Positions 6,166-63,633 of a stretch of 64,000 bases of DNA are shown here, one piece after another. The stretch is taken from the IMG/VR virus record IMGVR_UViG_3300050498_000493; one strand, written 5' to 3'. Source of the DNA: a virus. A program made the translations under genes and the position numbers. Each line of letters begins with the position of its first letter. The stretch's first letter is position 1. The notes beneath the pieces were generated by a model, which was given only the letters and a program-made list of their open reading frames with translations, ran no database searches and was not told where the DNA came from.

Positions 6166-6702
6166 ATGGCGCCCCCGCTCACGCAGCTCTCGCCCGAGCA
6201 GCTCACGCTCGTCGCCATTGCCGAGCTCAAGCCGCATCCCCGCAACGACGGCAGCCATCCCCCGGCCGAACTCGATCACCTCAAAGCCTCGATTACCCAG
6301 CACGGCATTTACCGCAACGTCGTCCTCGCGCAGGACGGGACCCTGCTCGCCGGGCATGGCGTGGTCGAAGCCGCCCGGGCGTTGGGCCAGACGCATGTGC
6401 CCGGCTACCGCCTGCCGTATGCGCCCGATGACCCAGCGGCGTTGGCGCTACTCGTGGGGGACAACCACATTGCGCGGCTGCGCGAGCAAGACGACCGTCT
6501 GCTGGCGGCGCTGCTGCAGGACCTCGCAACCGACGATCCGCTCGCGCTGCTCGGGACGGGGTATGATGCAGACTCGCTGGCGGCGTTGGTACAGCAGGGT
6601 CAGGTCCCGGACTTTCAGCCCGTGGGGATTGACGAGCAAGGACGTCTCGATGAGAAGCAGCCACTGGAGTGCCCCGCGTGTGGGCATACGTGGGTACCAT
6701 GA
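6166..6702 (+). CDS. ParB/Srx N-terminal domain protein with C-terminal CPxCG ribbon
   Basis: LKPHPRN...SITQHG...LLAGHG...GDN; ECPACGHTW. Confidence 0.85.
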   Translation: MAPPLTQLSPEQLTLVAIAELKPHPRNDGSHPPAELDHLKASITQHGIYRNVVLAQDGTLLAGHGVVEAARALGQTHVPGYRLPYAPDDPAALALLVGDNHIARLREQDDRLLAALLQDLATDDPLALLGTGYDADSLAALVQQGQVPDFQPVGIDEQGRLDEKQPLECPACGHTWVP

Positions 6703-7409
6703 GCGACAAGCCCGTCCTCAAGCTGGACTGGTGTAGTTATGCCGCCGCCAAGTATGCGGTCGAGCATTGGCACTATAGTCAGAGTCTCCCGCCTTTCCCG
6801 CTGGTCACTATTGGCGTGTGGGAAAATGCTCGTTTTGTTGGCGCGGTGGTGTTTGGCCGAGGGGTGAACAAGAATCTCTGTAAAGCATATCAACGTGCTA
6901 TGACCGAAATTTGTGAATTGACCCGTGTCGCTTTGACGACGCATGCCTCGGCCACGAGTAAAATTATCCGTATTGCCGTGCGGTTGTTAGCACGTGCCAA
7001 TCCCGGTTTGCGGCTTATCGTGTCGTATGCTGACCCGAACCATGGGCATCATGGCGGTATCTATCAAGCATTAGGCTGGATTTTCGATGGGCAGACTCAG
7101 GCAGATTTTGTGGCGATTGACCGGGCTGGGCGCCGCTGGCATTCCCGTCAAGTAAGTGCGTCCGGCCATAAACGGAAATTTGGGAAGGTGTGTCGTGTGC
7201 CAAAGGTGAGTGAGTGTCGTGTCGTGTCCCTCTCTGGGAAGTATCGCTATCTCTGCCCGCTCGATGCGGCCGTGCGTGCCCAGATCGCCTCGCGTGCGCA
7301 ACCGTATCCCAAACGCGCCACAAGCATCGTAGCTGATGCGGCTCCCGTCCAGGGAGAAGAGGGCGGTGCGACTCCGACCGTGGCGCTTTCCGGCGCAGAG
7401 GTGTCATAA
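6699..7409 (+). CDS. mom: Mom-like adenine-modifying GNAT enzyme
   Basis: HWHYS...ELTRVAL...IVSYADPNHGHHGGIYQALGW...KYRY; ATGA overlap with ParB gene. Confidence 0.8.
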   Translation: MSDKPVLKLDWCSYAAAKYAVEHWHYSQSLPPFPLVTIGVWENARFVGAVVFGRGVNKNLCKAYQRAMTEICELTRVALTTHASATSKIIRIAVRLLARANPGLRLIVSYADPNHGHHGGIYQALGWIFDGQTQADFVAIDRAGRRWHSRQVSASGHKRKFGKVCRVPKVSECRVVSLSGKYRYLCPLDAAVRAQIASRAQPYPKRATSIVADAAPVQGEEGGATPTVALSGAEVS

Positions 7410-10715: not shown

Positions 10716-10953
10716 GCGGGAGCAACGGTACTTTGCAGATCTAAGAAAGAAGAGAAGATCTCGGAGAAAACCTCGATAAATCCCCTCCCCCCTCCCACCG
10801 CTGCAAGCGTAGAGGCAAACTGCCGGTTTTTGCAAGAGGGCAAAAGCAACCGCAGCGAGGGTGGGAGGCTGAGGGAGAGGGCGTCAGGACCAGGAACGCT
10901 GCCACCGGGGCGCAATGGCGCGACGTGGCAGGTGGCCTAGGAGAGGGGCTGAC

Positions 10954-11967
10954 ATGGAAGAGACACGCTTTCAAGAACTCCAACGCCGCTTGCCGTGCCA
11001 GATGCAGGCCATGCAGGGGCAGACAATATGGACCATAGAGAGCCGTTGTTTGCAGCGCTTTCTGGGGTCACATAAAGATGCTACAGACTGGGCAAAACAA
11101 CAAATAGAGCGCACTAAGCTAATTGAAAATACAGATGTTATAGTTTTCCCCCTTAAGGGGGAAAACCCCAAGGGTGGTCGTCCACGCATGGAGTATTATT
11201 TTACTTTCAACGCGGCTAAGAAGATTTGCATGATGGCCGAGACCGACAAAGGGGATGAAGTTCGCGAGTATTTTTTGGAGTGTGAGCGCCGTGCCCATGC
11301 CTTTGCTACTCCACCCCATACTCCTAGTACGTTCTATGAATGGTTAAGCATGGTAGAAAGCCTGGGCAAAGTCTTGCATGGGGAAATTCAGATTGTTCGT
11401 ACCGACGTTGGCCTCCTGCAAAACACGGTTGAATCGCTTGCCGATGAAGTACAGAGCCATAGCTTTGATCTTCATGCGCTTCGCCAGCATCAACAACGCC
11501 AGGAGCAGCAGCTTGGTGAAACCCTGTCTCATGTGGAACACCAGCAACAACAGTTAGGGCATGTACAGCAGCAGCTTGACGATGTCCTGCAACACTGGGA
11601 GCTTCGTGAGTCGCAGTATCAGGCTACCCAGCGTTCCTCCTCGTCGTATGCTTCGCGTACGGAACAGGAGCCACCAATCGGCTGGCAAACACTCCCGCGT
11701 TACGTGGCAAAGGTCCGTCCTGACGGTGTGCCCTTGTATCCGGGAAAGAAGATTCCCCAAGCGCTCCATGACTGTGTGAAACGGTATTGCATGCCGCATA
11801 AATTCACACTATTTGGTCATGAGTATGCGAGCAATTTTTATAGCCCCGAGGCGCTGAGAAAGGGTTGTGAAGACTATACTCATCGGCAAAAGCTCGCGCC
11901 GAAATTGCCCAAGAACTATGATCCCCGTCAGCGGGATTTTACCTTGGATGATCCACGGAAGTCATGA
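10954..11967 (+). CDS. AntA/AntB-type antirepressor
   Basis: L..FLG...DW..QQI...GGRPRMEYYFTFNAAKKICMMAETDKGDEVREYFLECE, then coiled coil. Confidence 0.85.
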   Translation: MEETRFQELQRRLPCQMQAMQGQTIWTIESRCLQRFLGSHKDATDWAKQQIERTKLIENTDVIVFPLKGENPKGGRPRMEYYFTFNAAKKICMMAETDKGDEVREYFLECERRAHAFATPPHTPSTFYEWLSMVESLGKVLHGEIQIVRTDVGLLQNTVESLADEVQSHSFDLHALRQHQQRQEQQLGETLSHVEHQQQQLGHVQQQLDDVLQHWELRESQYQATQRSSSSYASRTEQEPPIGWQTLPRYVAKVRPDGVPLYPGKKIPQALHDCVKRYCMPHKFTLFGHEYASNFYSPEALRKGCEDYTHRQKLAPKLPKNYDPRQRDFTLDDPRKS

Positions 11968-22347: not shown

Positions 22348-23542
22348 ATGGCCCTGACAATAGTCGAAGCGTCCAAGCTGAATTCGGGCGATGTTGCAAG
22401 GACCGCAATCGTGGAGATGTACGCGAGAAACAGTGACATATTGCGCGTGCTTCCGTTTGAAGGCATTGCTGGGAACGCCCTGAAATATAACCGTGAAGAT
22501 ATCTTACCTGGTGTTGGCTTTCGTGGGGTTAATTTGGCCCCCTTAGCGGCGTAAGCGCTATAGGACAACCGCGTGAATTGCTGGAACCTCTCTCTGAGAC
22601 AATCAGCAGCCAAGCCGCCGAGGAAACTCGCGGAAGGTTCAACGACTAGGGTAGGGAGCCTACAGCCTCAAGGCCATGGCGGTAAAACCCCACGAGCGCG
22701 CGGCATCCCTTTGGGATGAAGAGATAGTCTGACCTGCATGGCGACATGCAGAAGCATCGGATAAAGAGCCGGTGCGATAACAGCAGTGCAACGAAGGCTT
22801 TACCGAATCGGTTGGGGTTTTGAATCCTATTACTGAAAGTCTCGTTATTGCGGGAGGAGACCTGGACGTAGATAGGTTTATAACCCAGACCATGGGGGCT
22901 AACCAACGCAGTGTGCAGGAGGGGTTGAAGGTCAAGGCCCTGGCCCACCGCTGGACCCTCGCCTTCATAAAAGGTGACAGTAGTGCCGATCCCCGCGAGT
23001 TTGATGGGCTCCAACGCCGTATCCCGCCTGGGAGCTCGCAACTGCTCGATGCCGGGGCCACGTCGGGTGGGGATGCGCTGTCGCTGTTCAAGCTCGATAC
23101 GCTGATTAGCAAGGTGGACGACGCCAATTTTCTCATCATGAACAATACCATGGCTCTTAGGCTGGCGCAGGCGGCACGGAATACCGCTGTCGGAGGTTTT
23201 ATCACGTGGAATCCGTCGGAGTTTGGCCAGCGCATCATGTCGTACAACGGTATTCCGATCCTGATCGCGCGTGAGGATAATCTGGGGAATGACATCCTCC
23301 CGTTTACTGAGGCGAATCCGGGCGGCGGTGCTGCGGCCAGTACCTCTATTTATGCGGTGCAGATGGGCGATGGGGGTCTAGTAGGAATACAGAATCAAGA
23401 TATAAGCGTAAGAGACCTAGGCGAACTTGAAGCAAAGCCTGTTTTTCGTACCCGCGTGGAGTGGTATGCAAGTGTGGCCGTCTTCTCCGGGCGCAGTATG
23501 GCTAGGCTTCGCGGGATTAAGGATAGCGCAATCGTAGTATGA
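22348..23542 (+). CDS. Major capsid protein, spliced join(22348..22529,22789..23542), 311 aa
   Basis: Exon 1 MALTIVEASKL...LPFEGIAGNALKYNRE..LPGVGFRG joins in frame to VNEGFTES...GGDLDVDRFI...EFDGL...RTRVEWY...ARLRGI. Confidence 0.92.
22530..22788 (+). ncRNA. Group I self-splicing intron, 259 nt, no ORF
   Basis: P GAATTGCTGGAA, Q AATCAGCAGC, R GTTCAACGACTA, S AAGAGATAGTCT; exon ends in U pairing with IGS GCCCC (GGGGU); terminal G22788; splicing restores frame. Confidence 0.93.
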
Positions 23543-23573: not shown

Positions 23574-24395
23574 CTAGTGAGAGAGTCGTTTATGTCTTTG
23601 CAGTCGTCTTCCTATAGACGCTTGACTGATGCCGTAGCGTTGTCCAAGTCGGTCTTGGCTCCACGTGCCCGTCGCATGGAGTTCCAAGGCTTCTTGCCAT
23701 TGGGCATCAGTCAATTTACTCATCGCATTGCGTTCTCCCCTCGCCATACGTTCGGGATGCAGGCGTGCAGGATGCTGATCTCCGCACAATACAGATTCAG
23801 GATGAGCTTGATATCGCTGTCGGCCTTTGTTCGCCATATCCTGCATGTTGTCCGTATGCGTGCCAAGAAAGAGGTGTGCGGGTTGAACACACAAGGGCGT
23901 ATCGCACGAGTGCAGCACAAACAGTCCTTCCTGGGGCCATGCACCTGTGCTCAGGAACCAACTTGCGATATGGGCACTGATGTTGCCGTCTTTGTACGGT
24001 GTAGCACGAAAGTTGCCGTATCCTTGCTTAGTATGGATGGCGCCTTGCCACAACCAACACTCGTCCGGCCCTGCTTTCACGACTTTACTCCAGAAACGCA
24101 AGGCAAATGCCTCATGCGTACTCGTGGTTCGTGCCGCATGGTAGCAGTCCGACCCACAGTACTTCCAGATTTTGGCTTGATGCGGCAGGACCTCAAAGGG
24201 CTTGCTACACGGCTCGTAAGCACAGAGCAAGGTAACTTTCTCAGTGCGAGGTTGCTGTCTCGCCAAGCGTCGGCATCTGGGCGAACAATACCGGACCCCT
24301 CCACGCTTGGCTTCGCCAGGCATGGCCTCAAAGGGCTTCGCACATGGCTCGTAGGCACAGAGAAGTTGAACACGTGGGACACGATGAGCAGGCAT
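23574..24395 (-). CDS. Free-standing HNH endonuclease (HNH_3 type, N-terminal Zn repeats, C-terminal HTH)
   Basis: FWSKV...CWLWQG...GYG...VLHSCDTPLCVQPAHLFLGTHTDNMQD...SKLT. Confidence 0.92.
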   Translation of the reverse strand: MPAHRVPRVQLLCAYEPCAKPFEAMPGEAKRGGVRYCSPRCRRLARQQPRTEKVTLLCAYEPCSKPFEVLPHQAKIWKYCGSDCYHAARTTSTHEAFALRFWSKVVKAGPDECWLWQGAIHTKQGYGNFRATPYKDGNISAHIASWFLSTGAWPQEGLFVLHSCDTPLCVQPAHLFLGTHTDNMQDMANKGRQRYQAHPESVLCGDQHPARLHPERMARGERNAMSKLTDAQWQEALELHATGTWSQDRLGQRYGISQASIGRRLQRHKRLSH

Positions 24396-24508
24396 CAGCT
24401 GATCTCCCTATCGAGACGTTGGAGGCATGTGTTAGGCCCTCGCGTGGATAGGCACACAAGGCTTTTTATCGGGGGCCGGCCGACCCCACCTAACTCATCA
24501 AGAGTATA
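24396..24508 (-). ncRNA. Structured leader RNA and TATACT -10 box of HNH-1
   Basis: P1 GTTAGGT/GCCTAAC; two inner hairpins; loop CCTATC complementary to GATAGG at the RBS. Confidence 0.6.
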
Positions 24509-25968: not shown

Positions 25969-26727
25969 ATGGCGTGTGAGACAGTGACGATAGGGAGTTG
26001 TCAGTTGATCTGTGGGGATGCTCGGGAGGTGTTACCGACGCTCGGGCCGATGGATGGCGTCATTACCGATCCGCCGTATGGGGTAGAGTTCGCTGGGAAA
26101 CGTGCCCTGTGTCATGGAACCTATACCACCTTTCGTCCTGGGCATTATAGTCATGAGGACACCGTTGGCTATGTCGAGGCGGTGGTCCTTCCCATCCTGG
26201 CTCAGTGCCGGACTTTGGCCGCCTGCGTGGCACTCACCCCTGGTACTCGGGAGATGTGGCGGTATCCTGCGCCGGACGACATGGGCTGCTTCTTCTCTGC
26301 GGCAGGCACCGGCATGGGACGCTGGGGCTTTACGTGTTGCTATCCTATCCTCTACTATGGCAAAGATCCGTACCTTGCCAAGTCGTTCGGCGCACGCCCC
26401 AACTCTTGTGGGCAGACATATCCCAACGATGCCAACAAGATCGCACATCCCTGCGCGAAGCCCTTACCGATGATGCTCTGGCTCGTCAATCGCGCGAGCC
26501 TCCCTGGCATGGCGGTGCTCGATCCATTCATGGGCTCGGGTACGACTGGTGTGGCATGTGTGCAGCTAGGTCGCTCGTTTATCGGCATCGAGATAGAGCC
26601 TCGCTACTTTGACCTAGCATGTCAGCGCATCGAGGATGCCTATCGGCAGATGGTTCTCTTTCCTATAGTTCCTTTAGGTGGACAACCGCAGCAAGTACCC
26701 CTCTTTACGACAGGAGGAGGTGCCTGA
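25969..26727 (+). CDS. N6-adenine/N4-cytosine DNA methyltransferase (beta class)
   Basis: ITDPPYG, HPCAKP, VLDPFMGSGTTG, FIGIEIEPRYF. Confidence 0.93.
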   Translation: MACETVTIGSCQLICGDAREVLPTLGPMDGVITDPPYGVEFAGKRALCHGTYTTFRPGHYSHEDTVGYVEAVVLPILAQCRTLAACVALTPGTREMWRYPAPDDMGCFFSAAGTGMGRWGFTCCYPILYYGKDPYLAKSFGARPNSCGQTYPNDANKIAHPCAKPLPMMLWLVNRASLPGMAVLDPFMGSGTTGVACVQLGRSFIGIEIEPRYFDLACQRIEDAYRQMVLFPIVPLGGQPQQVPLFTTGGGA

Positions 26728-38371: not shown

Positions 38372-39028
38372 ATGCCGACCCAAGCCATAAGCGCATTTGG
38401 AATAGCCTTGCGCCTCGGGGACGGTATCGCGGCTGTTTTGAACATTACTGGCGCGACGAATACGACACCGATTACGATTACCACCGCCGCCGTCCACGGC
38501 ATTGTCGATGTGTCCAAAGTGACCGTCACGAACGTCCTTGGCAACACGGGCGCCAATGGGACGTGGATCGCGGAAGCCGTCACGCCTACGACCGCCCGGC
38601 TCCGGGGCTCGGTCGGCAATGGTGCGTACACGTCGGGTGGGGTCTTCACCCTCGATAGTACGTATGCCACGATTGCGGAAGTGACGGACATTCAGGACGC
38701 CGGCATTATGGCGGCGGTGATTAACGTCTCGGCCCACGACGGAGTTGGGGGGTGGGGCTCGCAAATCCCGACGATGCTCTCCAATAACAGCATGCGCCTG
38801 GTCGTCAACCATGTCCCAGAACATCCCACGCACAACAAACTCACCGGCCTCATTGATTTGATGGAGAACCGAACGAGGCGCCCCTATCTTCTTGTACTAC
38901 CAAATGCTACTAAGACTACTTGGTGGTGGTCTGGGTTCGTAACAGGTTGGAAGGATCAGGCCCCCATGGCGGGGGCGCTGACGGCGCAAGTGACTTTCGA
39001 ATTCCCCGACTCGCCCATTTTGGCCTAG
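38372..39028 (+). CDS. Tail tube protein paralog 1 with inserted beta-barrel domain
   Basis: MPTQAI...IAEVTDI...INVSAHDG..GW...IPTML...W.G.VT. Confidence 0.75.
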   Translation: MPTQAISAFGIALRLGDGIAAVLNITGATNTTPITITTAAVHGIVDVSKVTVTNVLGNTGANGTWIAEAVTPTTARLRGSVGNGAYTSGGVFTLDSTYATIAEVTDIQDAGIMAAVINVSAHDGVGGWGSQIPTMLSNNSMRLVVNHVPEHPTHNKLTGLIDLMENRTRRPYLLVLPNATKTTWWWSGFVTGWKDQAPMAGALTAQVTFEFPDSPILA

Positions 39029-39705
39029 GCTCTTCTAGTATAAGACTTGGCTGGAGCGAGTGTCAAGAGTAAGGGTTGTACAGGGACGAGAGGCGCCTTT
39101 GCATGTTTCTTGGAGTTGCAAGATTGGCAGGCTGGCACAACATTGGCCAGCGTATGCGAGCCGCCTTTACTGAGCGGGGTAATGTGATCTTGCGTCAGGC
39201 GTTTCATCTTGCGACCGCAATAGACACACCGATGATCGTAGGCGTTCTTGATTTCTTCCCACTGCGCGGCGGTCAAGTCGTTGAGCGGCGCCTCAGTACG
39301 GGCGGTACGTCGGCGTTCGGTCTTCTCTTGTATCCATTCAGGATGTTGTGCGTACCAGTCCGCATGCTTTTGGCGCATGGCCATCCGGTGCGCAGCATAA
39401 TACGCCGCACTTTGGGCATTCATCAAGGCTTTGTTTTTCAGGTAGCGGGCCTTATTACGTGCCTTTTTCTCGGCCTTATGAGCTTCCTCATAGGCTTGCC
39501 GTTTCTCATGATTCTCGCGTTGCCAGCGTGCGACAGCTGCACGCACCTTGTCGCCATTGTTTGTACGATACGCCAGGCTTTCTTGGCGCTTACACAGGAT
39601 ACAGCGCGTGGCTTTGCCATCGCTGGTGTATTTGTCTGTGCCAAATTCATCAAGGGGTTTCAGCAGATCGCATCCACGACAGACTTTTTTTGCAGGGGGT
39701 TCCAT
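39025..39705 (-). CDS. Free-standing HNH endonuclease (CxxC-HNH type)
   Basis: CVYCG...LTQDHITPLSKGGSHTLANVVPACQSCNSKK; N-terminal CRGC...CILC. Confidence 0.92.
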   Translation of the reverse strand: MEPPAKKVCRGCDLLKPLDEFGTDKYTSDGKATRCILCKRQESLAYRTNNGDKVRAAVARWQRENHEKRQAYEEAHKAEKKARNKARYLKNKALMNAQSAAYYAAHRMAMRQKHADWYAQHPEWIQEKTERRRTARTEAPLNDLTAAQWEEIKNAYDHRCVYCGRKMKRLTQDHITPLSKGGSHTLANVVPACQSCNSKKHAKAPLVPVQPLLLTLAPAKSYTRRA

Positions 39706-39813
39706 ACGCACCTTCTAACTAAGGTTGGGGTGAGTACTTGGCTCCCCACTGAGTTAGCAGCAGAGACTTGATCGAATGCTAGCAAGGCATTCACCAAGTA
39801 CCCGTTCAGTATA
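39706..39813 (-). ncRNA. Structured leader RNA and TATACT -10 box of HNH-2
   Basis: P1 GGGTACTTGG/CCAAGTACTC; two inner hairpins; loop CTAACT complementary to AGTTAG at the RBS. Confidence 0.6.
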
Positions 39814-39886: not shown

Positions 39887-40288
39887 ATGCCGACTCAGGC
39901 TATAGCGGCCACTGGACTCATTATCAATATGGCGGGAACGCCTATTCCTGAAATTACGAACGCCTCCGAGATTGGTGCTCAGTTCAATGTGGTCGATGTC
40001 TCGGCCCATGATGGTGGTAATTGGTCTAGTAAGATTCCGACCTTACTCGACGGTGGGACGATCCGCGTCAGCGCGAACTTTGTGCCCGCGAATGCGCAGC
40101 ATGTGGCTTTGCGGACGGCGATGATTAACCGCACGTCCACGGCGTTTACCGTCCGGTTTCCCAATGTGGGCGCGACGACGTGGAGCTTTAACGCGTTTGT
40201 CACGCGGTATCGCATTCCATCCGCGCCGGTCAACGGGGCGTTGCCCTTAGAATTCGAGCTCACGGTCGATGGTGCGATTACATTTTGA
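39887..40288 (+). CDS. Tail tube (major tail) protein paralog 2
   Basis: MPTQAI...VDVSAHDG..W..KIPTLLDGGTI...F.AFVT...L.VDG.ITF. Confidence 0.85.
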   Translation: MPTQAIAATGLIINMAGTPIPEITNASEIGAQFNVVDVSAHDGGNWSSKIPTLLDGGTIRVSANFVPANAQHVALRTAMINRTSTAFTVRFPNVGATTWSFNAFVTRYRIPSAPVNGALPLEFELTVDGAITF

Positions 40289-45675: not shown

Positions 45676-46353
45676 TTATATATGCTTCCAGGTTTTGCGA
45701 TGAATGATGTACTGTATAGCAAAGTCCGAGACACCGTACTGATTGGCCAGGGCATTGATCGTCGTCCAACCCCGGCTGTAACACGCACGTATCTCCAACA
45801 CCTGTTCGGCGGTCAGCTTCGCGTGTGGAAACGCTTCTGGCTTGGTATGGATACCCGCCATCGCGCCTTTTGCCTGCCGGCCTTTCTGCACGGCATCCTG
45901 GCGATTGCTCTGCAACGTCCCCAGCCACAAGTGGAGGGGGTTGCAGCACGCAGGGGTATCACAATAATGGCAGACAAGCTTTCCTGGCGGGATGGGACGA
46001 GCATGCCAGATTTCATACACCACGCGGGTGACTGGGATCGTCAGATGTTTACCGTTGTAGGCCAGTGTAAACTTGCCATAGCCATCTTGATCCGTGCTTT
46101 TCAGCCAGGGCCAGCAGCAATACACACAGTCCTCGCCATGGCCGCACTGCTGAATCGCGCCCCACAAGCGCTCCAGAAATGGCAGCCTGGGTGGAATGCC
46201 ACGCGCGCGTTTGTAGGACGTCTGCATGGTATTCCAGCAGTCGCGGCAATACATGCTCTTGCCGTCACCGCGTTGGGCATCACTACCAAAGTCGTCCAAG
46301 GGTTTGATCAGATGACAGCGGGAACACGGTTTCTCAGTGCGGTGGCGTTTCAT
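45676..46353 (-). CDS. Free-standing HNH endonuclease (HNH_3 type)
   Basis: CWPW...DGYGKF...VCHYCDTPACCNPLHLWLGT..SN..D...AKLT; GGAGG RBS. Confidence 0.9.
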   Translation of the reverse strand: MKRHRTEKPCSRCHLIKPLDDFGSDAQRGDGKSMYCRDCWNTMQTSYKRARGIPPRLPFLERLWGAIQQCGHGEDCVYCCWPWLKSTDQDGYGKFTLAYNGKHLTIPVTRVVYEIWHARPIPPGKLVCHYCDTPACCNPLHLWLGTLQSNRQDAVQKGRQAKGAMAGIHTKPEAFPHAKLTAEQVLEIRACYSRGWTTINALANQYGVSDFAIQYIIHRKTWKHI

Positions 46354-46455
46354 AGCGTGACCTCCTGGATCACAGGGCATCGTTGGGGGAAGTGGCTGGC
46401 AGGCGATGAACTCTGCCCCGGTTTCGAACCCGGTGCCACTCGACACAAGAGTATA
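46354..46455 (-). ncRNA. Structured leader RNA and TATACT -10 box of HNH-3
   Basis: P1 AGTGGC/GCCACT enclosing CCGG..CCGG and GGCAG/CTGCC hairpins; CCAAC after P1. Confidence 0.5.
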
Positions 46456-62850: not shown

Positions 62851-63633
62851 ATGGCCTCGCCGCGCGCTGTCAACCCGACCGTGCTCCCGGCCGAGGAGCG
62901 TCCGCCGCATCCCGACCTGATGCTGTTACTCGCCATGGAGCATCTGCAACAGGGGCAGCAACGGCTGGAAACCGAGGTCCAACACCTCGTCCCGCTTCTC
63001 GAACAAATTATTGCCCTCCTCGACACACCCAAAGAACCCCCGGCGCCGCCTATTGCCTCCTATGCCAGTCTGTATGCGGACGAGGCCCTTGCGTGCGTGC
63101 TCCCCCAGACGGTCGAGACACCGCCGCGCTCTCCACAACACGGGAGGTGGCGCCGGCTTTTCGCCTCGCGGAGTAGCCGTGTGGTCGGGCTCGTGGCCGT
63201 GCTCGCGGTGTGCGCTTTGCCCTGGTACCGGGTCAATGTCACGTCCAGTGCGCCTCGTGGGGTCTGGCGTATGCTGGCGGTGCCGCCGGTGGTGGAGAAA
63301 GGCATGTGGGTCACGCTGCCCGCCCCGGCGAGTGTGAAAATCTGGGCGCCGCACTGGGCCAGTCTGCTCAAGCCTGTCGCGGCGGTGGCCGGAGAGCAGG
63401 TGTGTGTGTCGCGGGAGACGCTCTGGATTCGGGGGCAGTCGTTTGGGCGCGTCCTCACGCAGGATGCGGAAGGGACCCCGCTTCCCCGGCTGAGAGAGGG
63501 GTGTGTGGTGGTGCAGGCTGGAACGGTGTTTCTGGCGAGTACGGCGCCGCAGAGTCTCGATAGTCGCTATTTTGGGAGTGTGCCGGTAGCGGCGCTCACC
63601 GCGCGGGCGCTCCCGCTACTGACGTGGAGGTGA
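62851..63633 (+). CDS. traF: S26-family signal peptidase, TraF-like
   Basis: VNVTSSAPRGVW...LLKPVAAVAGEQVC...SLDSRYFGSV. Confidence 0.8.
   Translation: MASPRAVNPTVLPAEERPPHPDLMLLLAMEHLQQGQQRLETEVQHLVPLLEQIIALLDTPKEPPAPPIASYASLYADEALACVLPQTVETPPRSPQHGRWRRLFASRSSRVVGLVAVLAVCALPWYRVNVTSSAPRGVWRMLAVPPVVEKGMWVTLPAPASVKIWAPHWASLLKPVAAVAGEQVCVSRETLWIRGQSFGRVLTQDAEGTPLPRLREGCVVVQAGTVFLASTAPQSLDSRYFGSVPVAALTARALPLLTWR

Follow-up and report, generated by a model that had tools for sequence, protein, structure and literature searches.

In phages P1 and P7 (C4) and in phage P4 (CI), a three-stem RNA located in the leader of the gene that it controls carries a loop complementary to the RBS region, and the specificity of the interaction comes from few loop bases (PMC5320573, PMC4825925). 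For C4, a long bulged P1 and two antisense elements, a' in loop L3 and b' in junction J3/1, have been described (PMC2864571). The T-even homing endonuclease genes I-TevI, I-TevII, I-TevIII, segB and Aeh1 mobE each have a single RBS-sequestering hairpin, which is circumvented when transcription from a late promoter leaves out its 5' arm (PMC2988022). IsrK of Gifsy-1, a prophage leader RNA ending at an intrinsic terminator, activates the translation of its own mRNA in trans (PMC4825925). Finally, Rfam holds the int-alpA family (RF02996, typed as Gene; sRNA, with a gathering cut-off of 35.8 bits), the consensus of which has the same junction as the leaders discussed below, with L3 (aCCuUua) opposite the tail (uaAgG), a complementarity that is seen in the consensus and is not annotated by Rfam. 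The name reflects its location between integrase and alpA genes, and the motif reportedly originates in the work of Weinberg et al. 2017. No functional study of int-alpA was found in the literature searched, which had one passing mention only, nor was a description of the leader reported here, in a search that covered few subscription papers.

The DNA analysed is a stretch of 64,000 nt (the window), which, from family and profile matches, carries on its plus strand the structural operon of a tailed phage, with mom, terminase, a DUF4055 portal, scaffold, a major head protein gene with a group I intron, two tail-tube paralogs, tape measure, an NlpC/P60 protein and a tip protein. The phage clade is probably temperate, because a close relative (G001) is classed as a provirus. 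A genome scan found no close host for the window, the best major-head match being 61%, and neither tRNA nor tmRNA was found in it. Three HNH genes lie antisense, on the minus strand, at intergenic sites of this operon (table 1). HNH-1, with Cys-rich N-terminal repeats, is an insertion that has the major head gene on one side and gene 24541 on the other. An earlier note on this DNA had assigned HNH-1 and HNH-2 to different subfamilies, in agreement with their Pfam families (HNH_3 and HNH, respectively). HNH-3 is assigned to HNH by PHROGs only, and combines an HNH-2-like N-terminal zinc finger with an HNH-1-like catalytic part. No PDB sequence matched the HNH alignment.

Table 1. Genes, leader elements and neighbouring features of the window (positions are those of the 64,000-nt stretch; paired arms are separated by a slash).
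Feature	Position	Strand	Basis or remark
HNH-1 gene, 273-aa HNH_3 endonuclease	23574..24395	minus	Pfam
HNH-1 -10-like box TATACT (putative promoter)	24503..24508	minus	motif reading; starts at 24508
HNH-1 leader core	24431..24494	minus	P1 24494-24488/24437-24431
HNH-1 P2	24487-24472	minus	loop TCGGCCGG, contains 6-nt palindrome
HNH-1 P3 CCTTGTGTG/CACGCGAGG	24461-24453/24446-24438	minus	L3 CCTATC 24452-24447
HNH-1 P4 hairpin over SD	24402..24417	minus	loop L4 GATAGG 24412-24407, complementary to L3
HNH-2 gene, 226-aa HNH (PF01844) endonuclease	39025..39705	minus	between two tail-tube paralogs
HNH-2 -10-like box TATACT	39808..39813	minus	motif reading; starts at 39813
HNH-2 leader core	39732..39803	minus	P1 (11 bp) 39803-39793/39742-39732
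HNH-2 P2	39792-39774	minus	loop CTTGCTA, imperfect palindrome
HNH-2 P3 TCTCTGCTG/CAGTGGGGA	39766-39758/39751-39743	minus	L3 CTAACT 39757-39752
HNH-2 P4 hairpin over SD	39710..39725	minus	loop L4 AGTTAG 39720-39715, target of L3
HNH-3 gene, 225-aa HNH endonuclease	45676..46353	minus	before NlpC/P60 gene
HNH-3 extended -10-like box, TG-n-TATACT	46450..46455	minus	motif reading; TATACT starts at 46455
HNH-3 leader core	46390..46441	minus	P1 46441-46435/46396-46390
HNH-3 P2 loop GTTCGAAA	46429-46422	minus	6-nt palindrome
HNH-3 P3	46417-46413/46402-46398	minus	10-nt L3 46412-46403
HNH-3 L3 targets	46361..46382	minus	near site CGATG 46382-46378, 5 WC pairs with L3
HNH-3 weak second target GTGAT	46373-46369	minus	needs G-U pair; just before SD AGGAGG 46366-46361
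mom	6669-7409	plus	
AntA antirepressor	10915-11967	plus	between portal and Mu-F genes
Group I intron, ORF-less	22520-22751	plus	RF00028, 87 bits; just upstream of major-head ORF 22820-23542; apparently interrupts major-head gene
N6/N4 methylase	25969-26727	plus	amid head-completion genes
Two tandem major-tail paralogs	38372-39028 and 39887-40288	plus	N-termini alike; first with extra insert
Near-consensus sigma-70 promoter TTGACA-N18-TATACT (11/12)	39066-39037	minus	at HNH-2 3' end; directed antisense into first tail-tube gene
S26 signal peptidase	62851-63633	plus	

The motifs that the earlier note had listed upstream of the three genes (TATACT, stems, loops and targets) were all found in place on the minus strand. 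For each leader the predicted fold is a three-way junction in which P1 encloses P2 and P3. No -35/-10 pair scored above the scan threshold at any of the three leaders, where the -10 box alone is seen. In HNH-1 and HNH-2 the hairpin P4 has 5 bp, with the SD on its loop end and 3' arm. The earlier note had taken the contact between leader and RBS for a loop-RBS pseudoknot: the complementarity is there, and the contact is better described as a loop-loop kiss in HNH-1 and HNH-2, because the target of L3 is itself the 6-nt loop of P4. HNH-3, for which a looser fit had been noticed (CATCG/CGATG), belongs to another subtype, in which L3 has one target nearby and a second, weak one before the SD. CCAAC, which had been included among the shared elements, is absent in L001, L002, L012, L033, L039, L050 and L109, i.e. 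in many relatives, and is not a conserved element.

The resemblance to C4 and CI, also suggested in the earlier note, is useful as a working analogy and does not extend to membership. The C4 covariance model (RF01695) gave no match in the window and none in five related records at E<=5, and the leaders have no b' bulge. As compared with C4, their P1 is of 7-11 bp, J3/1 of 0-1 nt, and there is one antisense loop instead of two; furthermore, only a few bases separate the -10 box from P1, which leaves no room for an upstream target. A further trait of C4 is its processing by RNase P into a stable RNA with action in trans. As in the T-even hairpins (PMC2988022), the SD of a homing endonuclease gene carried by a phage would be masked, here by the predicted P4 of HNH-1 and HNH-2; at variance with them, the entire structure lies downstream of a sigma-70-type -10 box, and the code-specific loop is provided by a junction distinct from the hairpin. 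An intrinsic terminator, as in IsrK, was not found at the three leaders.

The folding of single sequences is modestly better than that of shuffled ones, with z values of -1.20, -2.53 and -1.05 for HNH-1, HNH-2 and HNH-3 (+0.26, -2.02 and -0.22 for the plus strand), so that the case for structure rests on covariation. Relatives collected by protein similarity yielded 12 aligned single-target leaders, in which 90.2% of the cells are paired and 23 of 33 pairs show changes on both sides. The values for the kissing helix are 91.7% and 5 of 6 pairs, respectively. None of 500 shuffles equalled the observed covariation, in a test that relatedness of the sequences can inflate, and slid partners pair in 37-52% of cells; P4, where the alignment is non-structural, is paired in 75%. 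Pairing that is kept while the primary sequence differs, as claimed from the first two leaders, is found in the alignment of the 12, for all four helices and for the kiss, and this covariation indicates that the leader structure is real. In the single-target type GGU/RCC is invariant at the inner end of P1 and AAG is near-invariant in J2/3.

A first model with automatic structure (R1) contained 8 pairs only and was replaced by R2, which gave 56 matches at E<=5 across 100 sources. Outside the training set it found six distinct full leaders (L138, L140, L150, L152, L153 and L158; 59-77 bits), all before antisense ORFs related to HNH-1 and all keeping the L3-L4 match, for which they use new codes, for example CCTTCTT/AAGAAGG and CCTTATC/GATAAGG. 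A -10-like hexamer is also upstream of 9 of the 9 model matches outside the training set that were checked. Since neither P1 pairing nor the L3/L4 match is present in it, a plus-strand R1/R2 match of 22-23 bits (L042/L113/L164 group) was taken to be false. By eye, such a leader is absent in the distant HNH matches L006, L008, L010, L015, L017, L018, L020, L081, L090 and L092, and in 10 of 11 further HNH loci taken from whole records, the exception being L188. In L054 and L197 the structures upstream of the HNH genes are partial; in these two, in L018 (before 800) and in L090/L092 the HNH gene is headed by a -10 box and by a hairpin or junction of another kind, which fits the motif poorly. A candidate fourth copy at minus 39042 (TTGACA-N18-TATACT, with CCAAC at +92) was rejected by taking into account its different fold (z, -0.21), the lack of R2 and R3 matches on that strand and the lack of a matching gene. 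L012, L014, L113, L109 and L110 lack the TTGACA-N18-TATACT pattern on their HNH strand.

The loop codes are specific. Automatic parsing of the single-target type gives 6-7 WC pairs in 12 of 13 distinct L3/L4 pairs, and the 13th (L012), which was mis-parsed, reads directly as CTCACT/AGTGAG; among non-cognate combinations, 15 of 156 reach 6-7 WC pairs. The three codes of the window match their own tails over 6, 6 and 5 nt and the other tails over at most 4, which indicates that they are orthogonal. The distance between the end of L4 and the ATG is 9-11 nt in 17 of 18 rows, namely the correctly parsed ones. That between the junction and L4, with mis-parsed rows corrected by hand, is constant at approximately 22-25 nt, while the lengths of P1 (7-11 bp) and of the linker (6-13 nt) compensate each other. 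In view of this compensation a cis kiss is no longer regarded as sterically impossible, and the near-constant distance would rather favour an intramolecular kiss for HNH-1 and HNH-2.

At the HNH-1 site, which follows the major head gene, the comparison covered 21 different alleles: 12 are empty (18-64 nt), 7 are full (leader plus long antisense ORF), 2 are leader-only, and none has the ORF without the leader. Empty alleles are also found at the HNH-2 (4 of 8) and HNH-3 (3 of 6) sites. The allele comparison indicates that leader and gene move together. Leader-only remnants, which keep the -10 box and P1-P3 and have lost target and nuclease, were seen on the minus strand of L029 (10734-10840), L044 (4907-5007) and L112 (1096-1186). 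The HNH-1 leader of the window has its P2 in common with L039, but P3, L3 and L4 with L031, and in L138 an L039-type leader is joined to an HNH-1-type N-terminus, from which it appears that leader parts and ORFs reassort. The portable promoter-plus-RNA module envisaged in the earlier note, with its mobility together with the nuclease and its overlap with the RBS, is supported by the empty, filled and leader-only alleles and by covariation, its promoter part being seen as a -10 box only.

HNH-3 and the leaders of L110, L116, L121, L122 and L188 have a short P3 and the L3 target twice, shortly after P1 and at the RBS. A canonical two-target leader with L2 GACG is also present in L039 (16907-17004, minus strand), from the same clade of phages; the ORF behind it is another one that is Cys-rich and nuclease-like. 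The int-alpA model RF02996 had no match in the window at E<=1, nor did HNH-1 and HNH-3, scanned as short stretches, give one at E<=10; when the whole window was compared with Rfam, no family was matched by the three copies. However, RF02996 scores 37.5 bits on the L188 leader, which precedes an HNH gene in a related phage and is the sole match in five related viral records. As regards the Rfam comparison advised in the earlier note, novelty is reduced, because the L188 leader exceeds the int-alpA gathering cut-off. RF02996 also matches 14 of the 151 genomes of G008's class. Of the 20 int-alpA matches, 18 were inspected by eye, and most of them show two L3 targets; the L2 loops CTGATCA, TCGCT and CGGCCA of int-alpA matches are also used in the window's clade.

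The int-alpA consensus and the window leaders share the three-way junction and an L3 complementary to a purine-rich 3' tail, and the A-rich J2/3 of the former, between P2 and P3, is also present in HNH-1 and HNH-2. The int-alpA junction letters UA (J1/2), GAAAA (J2/3) and CU (J3/1) are not those of the window leaders: in HNH-1 and HNH-2 the UA/CU hinges are missing, P3 is longer and the single target is placed in the loop of a hairpin over the SD, whereas HNH-3 has no J2/3. The Rfam model includes neither P4 nor the loop-target pairing. Unlike int-alpA, with its integrase-alpA location, the window leaders precede HNH genes in a structural operon. Model R2 recovers 1 of 54 two-target loci (E=0.023, on the leader) and misses HNH-3. 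Model R3 misses all three window leaders and finds those of L110, L116, L122 and L039 in the same phage clade, the first three being equal or nearly equal to training rows. Because this bridge in scores is weak, kinship with int-alpA is argued from topology, shared L2 loops and same-clade intermediates, and by this comparison the window module is likely a divergent, single-target offshoot of the Rfam family.

A pattern scan in which the -10 box, inner P1 and P2 stem only were fixed, leaving L3 and tail free, gave 71 viral loci, of which 49 are distinct and 48 were parsed, with 30 distinct L3 loops. WC sites of 5 or more nt in their own tail number at least one for 27 of these loops and at least two for 19, as compared with 14% and 1.8%, respectively, of 870 non-cognate L3/tail pairs. 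The spacing between the two targets is 13-14 nt in 17 of 29 cases, and the near target is stronger than that at the RBS in 17, weaker in 7 and equal in 5. The downstream ORFs scanned (36 of 45) encode 11 HNH proteins, one GIY-YIG protein, one integrase, one KilAC antirepressor, four DUF1376 proteins, one HTH_36 and one weak HTH protein, and 16 proteins without a Pfam family; one of the DUF1376 proteins and the HTH_36 protein match replication-initiator families in PHROGs. The genes downstream of the leader family are dose-sensitive ones. A large group of leaders (L223, L225, L229, L230, L237 and similar ones) precedes a 75-80-aa protein without a Pfam family and with a weak match to phrog_17352, and close leaders are found before DUF1376 replication proteins. 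L255 has, from 1501 on the plus strand, two tandem leader-like units, with no ORF picked right behind the first one. A different conserved element after a -10 box, with CGGCTAG in common with the leader motif, was seen in L300, L304, L312 and L313, at least two of which are in contigs over 200 kb.

On these grounds we consider it probable that the leader is a portable, cassette-specific translational lock, in which the pairing of L3 with the RBS region would hold down translation of the nuclease. Host RNA polymerase would start just before P1, as the -10 box suggests. In HNH-1 and HNH-2 the weak SD hairpin P4 (approx. -3 to -5 kcal/mol) would be clamped by the 6-bp L3-L4 kiss, most likely within the same molecule. 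In the two-target form, which is the commoner one and is seen loosely in HNH-3 and in the wider family, the nearer site, which is made first and is more often the stronger, would capture the RNA's own L3 as a decoy; the RBS site would then be closed only by refolding or by another copy of the RNA, as in C4/CI. The private L3 codes would stop cross-talk between co-resident cassettes. Translational repression and its mode are what we infer from the sequences, and the sign of the regulation has the same standing, because a leader-derived RNA can also activate its own mRNA, as IsrK does. The lock has to face the lack of a good match at the RBS of HNH-3, and the near-site decoy the fact that the near site is the stronger one in only those 17 cases; moreover, a constitutive cis lock alone does not explain how the nuclease is ever made.

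A main action in trans, dependent on concentration, appears rather doubtful. Copies would dock through their self-complementary L2 loops and the L3 loops would meet their targets, two L3 on two targets or one L3 on L4; translation would take place on entry into a naive cell, with shut-off as the RNA accumulates, and leader-only alleles would silence the same-code cassette of a co-infecting phage. The relevant evidence comes mainly from L2. Among 23 distinct L2 loops, delimited by eye, palindromes of 6 nt occur in 10 (9 different 6-mers; 0.5-1.0 expected, the observed number being reached by 0 of 20000 simulations) and palindromes of 4 nt in 12 (4.3-5.9 expected), as compared with 0 and 3, respectively, of 44 L3 loops, although the L2 loops are not independent because they are related by descent. 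A held-out scan with other P2 stems (38 loci, 35 distinct; L300, L301, L304, L312 and L313 dropped as another element or chance) added 20 of 30 leaders with a 4-nt palindrome, counted by eye, among which ACGT is new; however, it gave no new 6-nt palindrome, a strict stem filter left 3 of 8 distinct loops with a 4-nt one, and 5 of the 30 leaders have the GNRA loop GGCA. The L2 loop of several int-alpA matches, GACG, is the self-complementary kissing tetraloop of MoMuLV (PMC7357161), and C4 and CI work in trans (PMC5320573, PMC4825925). The target spacing of 13-14 nt and the parts retained by leader-only alleles also agree with such docking, but the L2 palindrome of HNH-2 is imperfect, a cis kiss agrees just as well with the constant distance between junction and L4, and the leader-only remnants may be recent deletions. 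Overall, the enrichment of palindromes in L2 is suggestive of RNA homodimerisation, next to which DNA-level explanations have a place. A phage RNA that counts its own copies, in that within a palindromic-loop dimer the programmable loop of the partner shuts the RBS of its own gene, is a possible but tentative extension of these observations.

The DNA-level readings, with the element acting as an operator, a methylation-sensitive promoter or a mobility end, are as a whole very unlikely. The L2 palindromes GATC, AGCT, GGCC, TGCA and TCGA are typical methyltransferase sites and lie just 3' of the -10 box, and both mom and an N6/N4 methylase are encoded in the window; nevertheless, the many G-U pairs, in the minus-strand sense, and the loop-loop match on the SD are RNA signatures, and action as DNA could account for L2 at most. 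It is improbable, too, that the junction is the site for a downstream or host protein that stabilises or opens the L3-RBS contact, in an autogenous manner like that of ribosomal-protein leaders. The invariant GGU/RCC and the near-invariant AAG of J2/3 could form a protein site, and the HNH proteins have Cys-rich N-terminal domains, but only a shared host factor would fit, because genes for unrelated proteins have this fold in front of them and leaders are recombined with different ORFs, as in L138. That the RNA is a cofactor of the nuclease, as the earlier note had suggested, or a guide similar to HEARO or omega RNA, is hardly credible, in spite of the position of the leader immediately 5' of HNH genes of two subfamilies. 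The HEARO/IscB omega RNA is marked by an Rfam match and by an adjacent IscB (RuvC plus HNH) gene, neither of which is found here: there is no HEARO match in the window or in the short scans of the HNH-1 and HNH-3 leaders, and the proteins match HNH families only, with no IscB or RuvC. The variable loop is complementary, instead, to the RBS region of the gene itself. A role as HNH cofactor is made unlikely also because the wider family heads non-nuclease genes, with leaders before integrase, KilAC antirepressor and replication initiators besides the GIY-YIG nuclease.

The translational lock that is here preferred provides a testable function for the int-alpA motif, and adds to it a single-target form with a kissing loop, which escapes detection by Rfam. 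Mobile nucleases that lie antisense in the structural operon of a temperate phage may in this way spare their carrier, and orthogonal codes would allow several nuclease cassettes to coexist. If L2 drives dimerisation, the leader would be a rare example from nature of gene control through RNA homodimerisation, besides being a source of compact orthogonal translational switches. If the counting of copies holds true, the same RNA would act as a protein-free burst-then-off timer for nucleases, integrases, antirepressors and replication initiators, with private immunity codes, and leader-only alleles would be RNA-only shields against the homing endonuclease of a rival phage.
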